Part shown: positions 33,001 to 39,000 of the stretch, one piece after another
Layout: every line of letters starts with the position of its first letter
Numbering within the stretch: the stretch's first letter is position 1
NCBI GenBank assembly: GCA_030650425.1
Contig: JAUSED010000008.1
Coordinates: forward strand, 132,554-196,553
DNA length: 64,000 nucleotides
Source: Candidatus Omnitrophota bacterium
GTDB taxonomy: Bacteria; Omnitrophota; Gorgyraeia; Gygaellales; Profunditerraquicolaceae
Reading direction: 5' to 3'
Position numbers: made by a program

Positions 33001-36000
33001 ATAAATTTTTTGATAAGATTAAGCTCTAAATTTAAATTACCGTCTTATCTTATAAAGGCAGTTAAACACAGTAACCTTTTTCATAGAAACTGGATAGAGG
33101 TGAAATGCCGCCAAGCATTAGGAAGTTTAAAGAAAAAAACTGTGGCTATTTTAGGTTTAACTTATAAGCCTGGAACTGATACTTTACGAAGGTCTCCTGC
33201 CGTGGAATTAGCTAAATTACTACAGGCCAAAGGAGCCTTAGTGAATAGTTTTGATCCGGTAATCAAAAGTATTCCGAAAGATCTTTCTAAGATAATATGC
33301 TTAAAGAACAGCGCAGGAAAAGCCATACTTAATGCCGATGTGGTCATAATTGCTACTGAATGTCCGGAATTCTTACAGTTTGGCGAAGATGTAATCAATC
33401 TAATGAAAAATAAGATTATTATTGATCCTAACGGTTTTATCGTAAAACTTATTGAGCATAAAGATTTAAGCTATATTTCTGTAGGAAAAAGTTTCGATAA
33501 AGAGAGCGTGGAATGAAGTTAAAAGGCCGCGTTGCCATAATTACCGGAGCTAATCAAGGATTAGGGGAGGCCATTGCGACGGAATTTGTTAGGCAGGGGG
33601 CGGGGGTTTTTATTTGTGCTCGGAATAAAGACAAATTATTGGCGGTTAAAGAAAAATTAGAACAAGTTTCGGGGAGAGGTCAAAAAGTATGCGCTATGGC
33701 CGTAGATGTTTCAAATGAGGCCGAAGTAGAAAAATTAATTAATGCTTCTATAGCTGAGTTTAATCATGTTGATATTCTTGTGAATAACGCTGGGATTTAC
33801 GGACCTATGGGTTCGATTGAAAAAGTAGATTCAGGCGATTGGGTTAAGACAATTGAGATTAATTTATGTGGAGTATTTTATTGTTGTAAACACATTATTG
33901 TTCATATGAAGAAGAACAATTATGGGAAAATAATAAATCTTTCTGGGGGTGGAGCGACAGCTCCGCTTCCCTTTATTAGTGCATACGCGGCATCCAAAGC
34001 AGGGGTTGCCCGGCTTACTGAAACATTAGCCGGTGAATGCAATGGTTTCGGAATAGATATAAATTCTATAGCCCCGGGAGCGCTTAATACTAGATTACTT
34101 GATGAGGTATTATTTGCCGGCCCTCAGGCTGTAGGAAATGATTTTTATGAGAAAGCTTTAAAGCAAAAAAAAGATGGCGGAGTTCCTTTAGAAGTTGGTG
34201 TTGAGCTTTGCGTTTTTTTGGCTTCTTCTGAGAGCGATGGGGTTACCGGCCGGCTCATCAGCGCAAAATGGGATTCCTGGAAGTCCTTACCTAACCGGCG
34301 GCAAGAGTTAACCAAAAGTGATATTTATACGCTGCGCCGTATTACCCCTGAAGACCGGGGTAAAAAATGGGATTAACGATGAACGTTGGCATAGTAGGTT
34401 GTGGTTTGATTGGTAAAAAGCGGGCACTTACTCTTGGCCAGCATAATCTTTTACTGGCTGTTGATTGTGATATCAAACGAGCAGAAACCATAGCAGCTTT
34501 AAATGGTCAAATTAAGGTTTCCACTGATTTTAATGATATAATAAAAGATCCTCGTATTGATATTGTTATTATTTCTACAACTAATGATATGCTTGCTCCA
34601 ATAAGCCTTCTCGCAGTAAAAGCCGGAAAGCATGTATTGGTTGAGAAGCCAGCTGCTAGGAATTTTAAGGAGATCGAAGATGTAATTAAAATTGCCAAAA
34701 AGAATAAGGTTATGGTCAAGGTGGGTTTTAATTTACGTTATCATCCTGCTTTAAGGAAAGCTAAGGAAATTATAGATTCTGGCAAGATAGGCGAATTAAT
34801 GTTCATGCGTGCATGTTACGGTCACGGAGGCAGGATTGGTTATAATAAAGAATGGCGGTCTAATCCTAAGATTTCCGGAGGCGGAGAATTAATTGATCAG
34901 GGAGTGCATTTGATCGATCTATCCCGTTGGTTTTTTGGAGACTTTGTTTCTGTTAAAGGATTCAGTCATACTTATTTTTGGGATATGTCCGTTGATGATA
35001 ACGCCTTTTTATCTTTGCGCACTAAAAAGCAGCAGGTAGCTTGGTTGCATGTTAGTTGCACTGAATGGAAGAATATGTTTTCTCTGGAGATTTACGGTAA
35101 GGCTGGCAAGATTAAGATTGACGGTTTAGGCGGAAGTTACGGAATAGAAAAATTGATTTATTATCAGATGTTCCCTCAAATGGGCCTGCCGGAAACTACA
35201 GTTTGGGAATATCCAGAGGAAGATAAATCATGGAATTTGGAGTTTGAGGCATTTGTTGAAGCAATTAATACCGGCAGGGCGCTTGACGGGGACATCAATG
35301 ACGCATACGAAGCGTTGAAGATAGTGGACGAGATTTACGCTGGTTCAGGGGGGATGAGATGATTATAGCCAGAAGTCCTTTACGAATAACTTTAGGCGGA
35401 GGGGGAACAGATCTACCTTCTTACTACGAGAAGTTCGGCGGATTTTTAATAGCCGCGGCTATTGACCGTTATGTCTATATTACTATTCATGAGACCTTTG
35501 TGAATTATCTTATTGTGAAATACTCTAAAATGGAGAAAGTTAAAAAAGCTGATGATATCAAGCATCCTATCATACGCGAAGCCATAAAAATGCTTGATAT
35601 TGATTGCGCTTATTGGGAAATGAGCAGTATGGCGGATATCCCAGCTGGTACTGGGTTGGGCTCATCGGGTAGTTTTACTACGGCATTACTTAAAGCGCTG
35701 CATACTTATAAAAGAAATTTGATTCATCCCAAAGAGTTAGCCGAACAAGCCTGTCATCTTGAAATTGAAAAATTAGGCGAGCCTATCGGCAAGCAGGACC
35801 AATATATTGCGGCTTACGGCGGAGTTACCTGTTTTGAATTTGCGAGAAATGGTAAAGTAAATGCCTATCCCTTAAAAATTGATAAAGAAATTCTATATGA
35901 TTTGGAAGATAACCTGCTGCTTTTTTTTACCGGTTACTGCCGATCAGCTTCATCTATTTTAAAAGAACAACACTGTAAGAGCAAGAAGAACGATAAAATG

Positions 36001-39000
36001 ATGATTGAGAATATTCATTTTATAAAAGATCTGGGGGTGCAGAGTAAAAAAGCTTTAGAGAAAGGCGAGTTAAGAAAATTTGGCGATTTGATGAACGCGC
36101 ATTGGGAGTATAAAAAGCAGCGCTCCGGTAAAATATCCAACCCTAAAATTGATAAATGGTATAACTTGGCAGTTCAAAATGGGGCATTGGGAGGAAAGCT
36201 TATTGGGGCCGGTGGGGGCGGATTCTTAATGTTTTATGCTCAGGATAAAGTTAAGTTGCGCCATGCTATGATTATGGCTGGGCTAGAAGAGGTAAGGTTT
36301 CGTTTTGATTTTGAAGGAACAAAGTTGGTAATCCAACCATGATGCCAACAGTTTTGATTATTGCTGGTGGCGAAGGCAGGCGATTATACCCAATCACTAA
36401 GACTATCCCAAAGGCTATGATAGAATTAGCCGGGGAGCCATTCATCGCACATCAGTTGCGTATGCTTAAAAATAATGGCGTAACTCGAGCGATAATTTGC
36501 GCTGGATACCTTGGAGAACAGCTAAAAGATTATATAGAAGATGGACGTAATTTCGGCTTAAAGGTGGATTTTTCTTTTGACGGAGAGAAGCTTTTGGGAA
36601 CAGCGGGGGCCGTAAAAAAAGCCTTCTGCCTGCTTGAAGATAATTTTGCGGTAATGTATGGCGATTCGTATCTAACCGCGGATTTTGAACCCATTTCCGT
36701 TGCCTTTTTTTCAAGCGGAAAAAAAGGCTTGATGGCGGTATTAAGAAATAATGGCCAATGGGATACCAGTAATGTAGTATATGCTGATGGGAAGATCGTA
36801 AAGTATAGTAAAAAGCATATTACTCCTGAAATGAAATATATCGATTACGGATTATTGTTTTTTAGAAAAGAGGCCTTTGCTGGAATAGCTGAAAACCAGG
36901 TTTATGATTTGGCCGATTTATGCAGGGACTTGATAGAGAAAAATCAGTTGGATGGCTACGAAGTTGAGCAACGGTTTTTTGAAGTGGGTTCTTTTAAGGG
37001 TTTGGAAGAAACTAGAAGTTATTTAGAAAAATTAGGGAGTAGCCATGTCTAATCAAATTAATCTAGATAGTTATATCGATAGATATTTTTCACAAGCTAC
37101 GCAGATAACCCAGGGAGTCGATAAAAAAGCTGTCGAAGCTACGATTAAGGTTTTACTTGAAACCAAGAAATGGGAGGCAGGGTGATGAATTTTAATATGA
37201 AATGGGAGAGTATTAAATGATGTCTGGAGCTATTTTTCTTGATCGGGATGGGGTAATCAATCAATTAGTTTATAATCCTAAAACTAAAGAATATGAATCT
37301 CCTCTTTCTGAGAAAGACCTAAAAATTATCCCACGGATCTTTAGGCCGCTTAAAAAGCTTAAGAAAAAAGGTTTTTTACTTTTTATAATATCAAATCAGC
37401 CCAGTTACGCTAAAGGCAAGACCACTTTGGAAACATTATGTAAAATACATAAACTATTACATAGGAAGATGGCTGGTAAGGGAATAGTATTTAGCGAATA
37501 TTTTTATTGTTATCATCATCCTGAGGGAGTGGTTAAAAATTATTCTAGAAAATGCCTCTGTCGTAAACCTAAACCGTATTTTATCCTTAAAGCCAAGAGA
37601 AAATATGGGCTGGATATGCAGCAATCGTGGTTTATAGGGGATCAAGATTGTGATGTGCTATGTGGACAGGCTGCCGGAATTAGGAGTATTCTTATACAAG
37701 AAAGGCGTTCAAAAAATAAAAGAGGCCAAAGCCAGCCCGATGCTTACGTAGGTAGCCTGGATGAGGCCGTAGGTATAATTTTAAAACGAAACAATATGAG
37801 GAGTTAAACATGTTTAAGAGAAAATACTTCAAAATAAAGATTTTTGCTGATGGAGCAGATGTAGGAGCCATGAAAAGAGTTCATAAAGAAGGAACGGTTC
37901 AGGGATTTACCACTAATCCTACTTTAATGAGAAAAGCCGGAGTTGATGACTATGAGTTATTTGCCCGTAGCGTTTTAAGAGAAATTAAAGACTTACCCAT
38001 ATCGTTTGAGGTGTTTAGCGATGAATTTGAACAGATGGAGAAGGATGCCCGTAAAATAGCCAAGTGGGGGGCAAACGTTAATGTTAAAATTCCGGTTACT
38101 AACACTAATGGCGAATCTTCTCGCGCGTTAATCAAGAAACTTTCTGCCGAGGGAATTCCGTTAAATGTGACCGCTATTCTGACGGTTGAACAGGTAGAGG
38201 ATGTGATCGCGGTATTGTCGAAAAAAACACCGAGCATTATTTCTGTATTTGCCGGGAGAATTGCTGATACGGGAAGAGATCCTGTTGTTTATATGAAGAA
38301 AGCGGCGGCGATTGTTAAAAATAACCCTTGCGCTAGTTTATTATGGGCTAGCTCGCGGGAGTTGTTGAATATTTTTCAAGCTGAATCCGCAGGGTGCCAT
38401 ATTATTACTGTAACCGATGAGATTCTCAAGAAAATTATTCTTATAGAAAAGGATTTAATGGATTTATCTTTGGATACAGTAAAAATGTTTTACAAAGATG
38501 CTCAGTTGGCAGGGTATAAAATATAATTTTTTATAAGGAATGAATGATAAGTTTAATTATTGAAATTTTATTAGTATCGGTAAGTTCGTATTTATTTGTT
38601 GCGCGTTTATTTCGTACACGTATTTTTACTGAATTTGTTTTAATTTGGTTTTTATTGTTTTTTGGCCAAATAATCCTGGTTGAGCTTTCTTTAGGTGCTA
38701 TTGGTAAACTATATCTATCGAATGTGTTTTTTGCTCACTTCCTTATTTTTTTAATAGCTTTACTATCTTTTCAACCTAAGCAGGCAGTTAATGCAATAAA
38801 GCCTGATATAGAATTATTTTTTAAGTATAGATTATTACTTTTGGCTCTTTCAGTTTTTATATGTTTTTTTTCAGTAAAGACTTTCGTTAATCTGATTAAT
38901 CCTCCCATATCTCCCGAGAGCCTGCAGTATCATCTTGCTTACCCAGCTGTATGGATAAGGAGCGGAAGCCTGGATAATCCAGCCTGTATATTTAACGCAA

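Follow-up and report, generated by a model that had tools for sequence, protein, structure and literature searches.

A conserved nine-gene cassette, probably for a heptose, in an Omnitrophota polysaccharide locus that has lost its GmhA-like isomerase gene by internal deletion

Can a pathway for an activated heptose still run when the gene for its isomerase has been reduced to a fragment? This question is raised by a 64,000-nucleotide stretch of a Candidatus Omnitrophota metagenome-assembled genome (MAG; GenBank GCA_030650425.1, contig JAUSED010000008.1, positions 132,554 to 196,553), here called the window, for which a first interpretation made from the DNA alone (the sequence-only reading) proposed a GDP-heptose branch at 35359-38526. 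That branch was said to comprise a GHMP kinase of the HddA type, an HddC-like nucleotidyltransferase, a GmhB phosphatase and a transaldolase, with the isomerase GmhA represented only by a 46-codon open reading frame (ORF). All five elements are indeed present on the + strand, where the kinase, transferase, 46-codon ORF, phosphatase, and transaldolase form a tightly packed operon (Table 1). We favor, at a probability of roughly 70%, the reading that the isomerase gene was deleted and that the branch is now fed by a second isomerase encoded outside the window, namely a housekeeping GmhA belonging to an ADP-heptose route for the lipopolysaccharide (LPS) core.

In the NCBI record, the 46-aa product has the locus tag Q7K98_04280 and is annotated as a hypothetical protein, encoded on a 288-kb contig of a Candidatus Omnitrophota MAG; its ORF is preceded by its own Shine-Dalgarno sequence (AGGGAG, 37034-37039). 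Its boundaries, given in the sequence-only reading as 37047-37187, are off by two nucleotides and are corrected in Table 1. Searches of general databases with this ORF were uninformative: neither Pfam nor NCBIfam returned a match at E values up to 10, phmmer against the PDB recovered only designed alphaRep/HEAT repeats, which we judge to be chance matches, and a word-index homologue search of a large protein database found the ORF itself only. A tblastn check with GmhA, as the sequence-only reading had proposed, likewise lent no support when run with the Escherichia coli protein (NC_000913) against the 64-kb window; none of the matches listed at E ≤ 46 fell at the position of the ORF, and the best match anywhere in the window (E = 1.8) was to a GT9 motif.

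Comparison with orthologous loci was far more revealing. Among loci from at least seven phyla in which the same transferase gene precedes the same phosphatase gene, a full-length SIS gene of about 200 amino acids lies between the two in 55 of 55. The intervening proteins cover positions 2-199 of a 199-position profile, and the spacing between transferase and phosphatase is at least 608 nucleotides (nt) in these relatives versus 165 nt in the window. Though the general SIS models in Pfam and NCBIfam did not detect the ORF, a profile made from 22 of the cassette SIS proteins gave a single significant match when run unfiltered over the window translated in six frames (all 4,295 segments), and this was the 46-codon ORF (E = 1.1e-5, profile positions 3-37). 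The ORF is identical at 22 of 42 residues to the N-terminus of the intact isomerase in the closest related locus, a metagenome contig designated L083, and the two proteins have in common a four-residue N-terminal extension; over the same N-terminal columns, the L083 protein reaches at most 47% identity with any other intact orthologue. Because a syntenic SIS gene is present in the relatives, the profile matches the ORF, and the identity to L083 is high, the ORF is a genuine remnant of the GmhA-like SIS isomerase of this locus, in agreement with the GmhA-like N-terminus first proposed for it.

Alignment with L083 further identifies the lesion as a net internal deletion of 442 nt, about 72% of the gene; a nonsense mutation is not the cause. 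The gene measures 176 nt in the window, from the start codon at 37045 to a stop at 37218-37220, versus 618 nt in L083. The sequence-only reading had described the fragment as ending in tandem stops before the SIS motifs, and the tandem TGA codons are present; they are not what truncated the gene, however, and a C-terminal remnant survives. The DNA of the 5′ remnant is 63% identical to L083 6667-6804. The 3′ remnant, comprising the last 12 codons (VMNFNMKWESIK) and the native TGA, lies in another frame, which from 37170 reads M G G R V M N F N M K W E S I K before the stop; the last twelve of these residues (37182-37217) align to SIS profile positions 188-199, the extreme C-terminus. Its DNA is 65% identical to L083 7257-7336, including an exact ATGAAATGGGA, and the orthologue C-termini end in MKWES[TV]K (VKSFGMKWETTK in L083, LKSFEMKWESTK in L005 and L007). 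Both ends of the gene are therefore homologous to an intact syntenic orthologue, the core is lost, and the frame is broken, the configuration of a pseudogene formed by internal deletion.

The deletion appears to have left the neighboring phosphatase gene unharmed. The TGA of the SIS gene (37218-37220) overlaps the ATG of the phosphatase gene (37217-37219) as ATGA (37217-37220), exactly as in L083, and the phosphatase Shine-Dalgarno sequence (GGGAGAG, 37204-37210) is situated inside the 3′ SIS remnant, six bases before the phosphatase start. Since both lie within the surviving 3′ piece, the ribosome-binding site and start of the phosphatase are untouched by the deletion, and downstream expression need not suffer from it.

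Two reconstructions of the event fit the arithmetic. In the one we prefer, 147 codons (L47-A193 in L083 numbering, the whole SIS core) were lost in frame, together with one A at 37168-37170; in the other, a single event removed 442 nt. The −1 frame between the two remnants contains ATG GGA GGC AGG (M G G R), which resembles the conserved xxGR preceding the GRLFILGVGGS motif and may continue the N-terminal part, though the resemblance covers only three to four residues and is weak; such a bridge at 37170-37181 would imply the loss of 1 nt in the A-run at 37168-37170, which is uncertain. The GGR portion of the bridge (37173-37181) is too short to discriminate between the two reconstructions. An in-frame fusion, in which the KKWEAG preceding the tandem stops would correspond to the C-terminal MKWE, was considered and rejected, as the true C-terminal remnant is located 32 nt downstream in the other frame. 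An exact 9-nt direct repeat, AAATGGGAG, flanks the deletion junction at 37168-37176 and 37200-37208, its copies 32 nt apart. The first copy coincides with the place where the N-terminal remnant shifts frame, and the second is the conserved MKWE/Shine-Dalgarno sequence. The repeat may be due to chance or may be a trace of the rearrangement; a simple deletion via the repeat was rejected, because both copies persist.

As the source is a metagenome-assembled genome judged from assemblies, and as a direct repeat is found at the deletion site, it must be asked whether the 442-nt gap is an artefact of assembly or consensus, or a minority allele, with an intact gene in the true genome. The data leave this explanation little room. 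Over 8368-64000, the window is reproduced without a difference in a Logan assembly of run SRR13727527, so that this contig and the NCBI MAG contig, which carries the 46-aa protein, agree over 55.6 kb with the junction included. No repeat of sufficient length for de Bruijn collapse is present; the 9-nt repeat is far too short, both of its copies are retained, unlike in a repeat collapse, and the remnant carries a frame change as well. Assembly error is thus probably not the source of the deletion, and we consider it very improbable that an intact gene is concealed in this way.

The unit to which the isomerase belonged is larger than the sequence-only reading had supposed; the genes named there are real, but the unit begins at 31256. 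Window positions 31256-38526 constitute one copy of a conserved nine-gene cassette that is horizontally shared across phyla, with the gene order epimerase/dehydratase, nucleotide-sugar dehydrogenase, short-chain dehydrogenase/reductase (SDR), Gfo/MocA oxidoreductase, GHMP heptokinase, nucleotidyltransferase, SIS isomerase, HAD phosphatase, and transaldolase. About 100 related loci were collected by querying one genome per species with the transferase and the JGI metagenomes with the kinase. Syntenic cassettes were recovered from Spirochaetota, Brevinematales, Planctomycetota, Acidobacteriota, Verrucomicrobiota, and Ignavibacteria, as well as from many metagenome contigs. In the closest locus, L083, identity to the window is 81% for the kinase (81-83% in L083 and L084), 76% for the transaldolase, 64% for the phosphatase, and 62% for the transferase. 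The first cassette gene is syntenic in L083, L088, L109, and L114 at 64-69% identity, and its matches to the NCBIfam GalE and dTDP-glucose dehydratase families are sub-threshold only; the nucleotide-sugar dehydrogenase is syntenic in relatives at 44-61% identity. The literature that could be searched contains no description of the nine-gene cassette.

In most related loci, the transaldolase gene comes after that of the phosphatase, and it is an integral member of the cassette. Several relatives carry adjacent cassette genes as single stop-free ORFs and thus as natural fusions: SIS-HAD in five acidobacterial loci (L008, L009, L010, L013, and L015), transferase-SIS in L123, L126, L153, and L159, and HAD-transaldolase in L104 and L141. 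These fusions link the steps as one pathway, and the last of them ties the transaldolase to the cassette pathway rather than to central metabolism. Reduced variants exist as well. In L114 (5636-7499), the transferase is followed directly by the transaldolase, without linked isomerase or phosphatase, and in L088, L109, and L135, the isomerase, phosphatase, and transaldolase are all lacking within 2-4 kb downstream of the transferase.

Table 1. Features of the cassette, of the isomerase remnant, and of the heptose-related genes further downstream, in window coordinates. The last column gives residues invariant among relatives that are changed in the window protein, out of all such residues (leave-one-out comparison).
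Feature	Position	Strand	Basis	Invariant residues changed
NAD-dependent epimerase/dehydratase (extended SDR), first cassette gene	31256-32206	+	Pfam Epimerase/GDP_Man_Dehyd	
Nucleotide-sugar dehydrogenase (UGDH/GDP-mannose dehydrogenase family)	32188-33516	+	TIGR03026, 309 bits (cutoff 189.8)	2/68
Classical short-chain dehydrogenase/reductase	33513-34376	+	Pfam adh_short, E = 6e-54; syntenic, 69% identity in L083	0/14
Gfo/Idh/MocA oxidoreductase	34367-35362	+	Pfam GFO_IDH_MocA and its C-terminal domains; 73% identity in L083	1/62
GHMP sugar kinase, HddA/WcbL (heptose-7-phosphate kinase) clade	35359-36342	+	Best NCBIfam family HddA (equivalog NF049969), 186.6 bits (below cutoff of 600)	0/54
Sugar-1-phosphate nucleotidyltransferase	36339-37052	+	Pfam NTP_transferase	1/23
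SIS (GmhA-like) isomerase remnant, 46-codon ORF	37045-37185	+	Ends in TGA, then second TGA at 37186-37188	
5′ remnant of SIS gene: start and codons 1-42, original frame	37045-37170	+	Profile; L083 alignment	
Possible N-terminal continuation, −1 frame (uncertain)	37170-37181	+	M G G R	
3′ remnant of SIS gene: last 12 codons and native TGA	37182-37220	+	Frame-2 translation	
HAD-IIIA phosphatase, GmhB-like	37217-37807	+	TIGR01656 and TIGR01662 pass; 64% identity in L083	0/14
Short transaldolase, TIGR02134 type	37810-38526	+	TIGR02134, 336.7 bits (cutoff 281.95), full length	0/32
GT9 glycosyltransferase (heptosyltransferase family)	53946-54863	+	Pfam Glyco_transf_9; NCBIfam heptosyltransferase I/II/III below cutoff	
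GT9 glycosyltransferase (heptosyltransferase family)	56244-57380	+	Pfam Glyco_transf_9; heptosyltransferase III, 136 (cutoff 170)	
Bona fide GmhB (D-glycero-beta-D-manno-heptose 1,7-bisphosphate 7-phosphatase)	59242-59787	+	PRK08942, 185.2 (cutoff 178)	

Family searches agree with the initial assignment of a kinase, a nucleotidyltransferase, a GmhB-like phosphatase, and a transaldolase to a heptose-type nucleotide-sugar branch. HddA remains the top family for the kinase despite a score far below its cutoff, and the best solved structures are heptose kinases (3K85, E = 5.6e-52; WcbL, 4USK; Campylobacter jejuni HddA, 4N3O). The transferase scores 74.2 bits against the GTP-specific HddC equivalog (NF049965, cutoff 300) and higher against MurU, itself below cutoff at 119 bits, and against archaeal GlmU-like models; its best structural match is MurU (4Y7T), and the heptose-pathway transferase of Yersinia pseudotuberculosis (6JQ8) aligns over the N-terminal half only. 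The phosphatase falls short of each GmhB model (alpha-type NF050049, 84.3 bits with a cutoff of 250; beta-type PRK08942, 112.6 with 178; TIGR00213, 104.3 with 149.6) and passes generic HAD-IIIA/histidinol-phosphatase domain models only (TIGR01656, 114.8 vs. 84.15; TIGR01662, 78 vs. 44.6). The intact isomerase of L083 passes Pfam SIS_2 (34.5 vs. 27) and scores 49.6 bits against the GmhA equivalog (TIGR00441, cutoff 209); for the intact orthologue, all 12 solved relatives at E ≤ 0.001 are phosphoheptose isomerases. The best structural matches of the transaldolase are the short transaldolases 1VPX and 3S0C.

In light of these sub-cutoff scores, and of a transferase closer to MurU than to HddC, "GDP-heptose" is best used as a label for a pathway that works in a similar manner rather than as a family assignment. 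A heptose-type branch is supported, whereas the GDP specificity and the HddA-HddC-GmhB names of the sequence-only reading are unproven. The cassette has four enzyme classes in common with the GDP-heptose pathway, and the nearest structures are heptokinases and phosphoheptose isomerases; it differs in that its proteins fall far below the equivalog cutoffs, its transferase is MurU-like, a transaldolase and four oxidoreductases are fixed members, and, in this genome, the isomerase is deleted. We infer that the cassette makes a nucleotide-activated heptose, which is then modified. The transaldolase would make or boost sedoheptulose-7-phosphate, which the SIS isomerase would convert to heptose-7-phosphate; the kinase would then produce heptose 1,7-bisphosphate, the HAD phosphatase heptose-1-phosphate, and the transferase the NDP-heptose. 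Nothing here shows that the cassette departs from the known logic of heptose or octose activation.

The fixed transaldolase invites a comparison with the synthesis of a longer sugar. The lincosamide GDP-octose route opens with a transaldolase. In the published enzyme list for it, LmbR (transaldolase), LmbN (isomerase), LmbP (kinase), LmbK (phosphatase), and LmbO (nucleotidyltransferase) are accompanied by the tailoring enzymes LmbL (dehydrogenase), LmbM (epimerase), and LmbZ (NAD(P) oxidoreductase) (PMC4351081; PMC12945683). If the cassette were a polysaccharide-directed counterpart of this route, its product would not be a heptose: a C3 donor and ribose-5-phosphate would be joined by the transaldolase into an eight-carbon ketose phosphate, its activation would fall to the SIS isomerase, kinase, phosphatase, and transferase, and its tailoring to the four oxidoreductases. 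All eight classes (R, N, P, K, O, L, M, and Z) are matched in the cassette when compared by enzyme class only; the transaldolase is not merely fixed in the cassette but fused to the phosphatase in two loci; and the four core enzymes all miss the heptose equivalog cutoffs. The comparison, however, extends to enzyme classes and not to orthology, and because the Lmb enzymes are related to heptose enzymes, similarity is expected either way. The same eight classes minus the transaldolase also define heptose pathways, and the score of the cassette transaldolase exceeds the cutoff for an equivalog of ordinary transaldolases. Moreover, the three loci without transaldolase, isomerase, and phosphatase (L088, L109, and L135), whose kinase and transferase are about 70-74% identical, argue mildly that core metabolism can furnish the kinase substrate. 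With the lincosamide route the cassette shares a dedicated transaldolase, a GmhA-like isomerase, a GHMP kinase, a HAD phosphatase, a nucleotidyltransferase, and oxidoreductive tailoring; unlike the cassette, that route belongs to an antibiotic cluster in Actinobacteria rather than to a polysaccharide locus, and it includes an aminotransferase (LmbS) that has no counterpart in the cassette, which has a classical SDR instead. On balance, we regard an octose product as improbable. Were it correct, replacement of the lost isomerase by a housekeeping GmhA would become less likely.

For a heptose product, the fate of the branch depends on the supply of its intermediate: it can probably still operate only where heptose-7-phosphate is delivered by a housekeeping GmhA encoded elsewhere. 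The window holds, as the sequence-only reading had noted, two GT9 genes and a second gmhB, and together these are suggestive of such a supply. The GmhB in particular points to an ADP-heptose/LPS-core route in the genome. That route has its first step, the isomerization of sedoheptulose-7-phosphate, in common with the cassette pathway; it differs from the cassette, which uses a GHMP kinase and a separate transferase, and the window contains neither the HldE-type bifunctional kinase/adenylyltransferase nor the gmhA that the route employs. Cassette variants without linked SIS and HAD genes (L114, L109, L088, and L135) are taken to make supply in trans plausible. A precedent for borrowing between the two routes is found in C. 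jejuni, where the GmhB used in GDP-heptose synthesis is that of the ADP-heptose LPS cluster (PMC10680097). In a Chthoniobacterales MAG (L012), an intact cassette has a second gmhA, of the housekeeping type, a few kb away (8733-9125, − strand); this second gene shows 49% identity to E. coli GmhA, versus 26-32% for the cassette SIS genes.

The alternative is that the branch is dead: there is no other source of the aldose-7-phosphate, the modified heptose has been switched off, and the surface antigen has changed in a very recent event. A search of the 64-kb window for SIS genes found none besides the remnant, whose frame disruption indicates that it is not selected as a protein. The cassette isomerase constitutes a distinct and strongly conserved lineage (median identity of 70% among orthologues outside the N-terminus), kept in every one of the complete relatives, and given its distance from E. 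coli GmhA it may not be interchangeable with the housekeeping enzyme. Against inactivation, the surviving genes show no excess change at invariant sites: in the seven cassette proteins compared, all changes are within the range of intact relatives (Table 1). The little-diverged remnant and the nearly unchanged invariant sites indicate either that the deletion is recent or that the other genes are still under selection. The sparing of the downstream ribosome-binding site and start overlap, the existence in other genomes of cassettes without linked isomerase and phosphatase genes, and the implication from a true GmhB and two GT9 genes that heptose-7-phosphate is made in the cell all argue in the same direction. 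We therefore consider a dead branch the less likely reading, but a serious rival and a likelier one than an octose product.

Supply by a second isomerase remains the reading we prefer, and several points nonetheless weigh against it. No second isomerase was found in the part of the genome that was read (the 64 kb and about 2 kb more), and intact neighbors are equally expected from a very recent inactivation. The kinase, transferase, phosphatase, and intact SIS protein are all below the HddA, HddC, GmhB, and GmhA equivalog cutoffs, and the best named matches of the transferase are MurU-type uridylyltransferases, not HddC. To our knowledge, characterised GDP-heptose clusters lack a transaldolase, and the lincosamide GDP-octose route is the only characterised pathway known to us with this enzyme set.

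The wider setting is a polysaccharide/LPS locus of at least 64 kb in which every called gene is on the + strand. The window contains about 60 genes, many with overlapping start and stop codons, and its GC skew is positive in all 2-kb bins (0.09-0.29). A ManC gene lies between the two GT9 genes. Two long ORFs, 38544-40649 (701 aa) and 44033-46111 (692 aa), are without a match in Pfam or NCBIfam; the former is rich in hydrophobic stretches and directly follows the transaldolase, the latter follows a run of methyltransferases, and both are candidates for novel polymerases or glycosyltransferases. Three cobalamin-dependent (B12-binding) radical SAM genes (5248-6627, 29646-31208, and 41378-42775) and two radical SAM/SPASM genes (11868-12941 and 24253-25347) occur in the window, with SAM methyltransferase genes near radical SAM genes at 6627-7325, 40646-41362, and 42796-44033. 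This concentration of radical SAM enzymes is unusual for a glycan locus and suggests C-methylated or otherwise heavily modified sugars.

Two carbamoyltransferases are also encoded (12945-14717 and 51557-53365), the second followed by small SxtJ-like and DUF5989 proteins (53367-53765 and about 53781-53939). This trio is known from saxitoxin-type clusters; here it occurs inside a polysaccharide locus. At 14736-21324, a nonulosonic-acid-like module (NeuB, CMP-sugar synthetase, PIG-L, WbqC, and MptE-like) indicates that the locus probably also makes a legionaminic- or pseudaminic-type sugar.

The loss of the isomerase gene is itself an ordinary and recent event in the surface-glycan locus of a MAG, and the deleted state is unique to the window among the relatives compared. 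For the organism, it means that, within a very large surface-polysaccharide locus, one modified sugar either depends on a borrowed isomerase or has just been lost, in what would be routine turnover of surface antigens. The cassette is the more interesting object: it crosses phyla, is tightly conserved, and lies outside the curated models of heptose pathways. On the long odds that its product is an octose, it would represent an unrecognised octose-type pathway in soil, peat, and freshwater bacteria belonging to at least seven phyla, providing an eight-carbon or other non-canonical higher sugar for surface glycans, and just knocked out in this Omnitrophota lineage. Working out whether the cassette yields heptose or octose would be a sensible goal, as a product could then be assigned in hundreds of environmental genomes.

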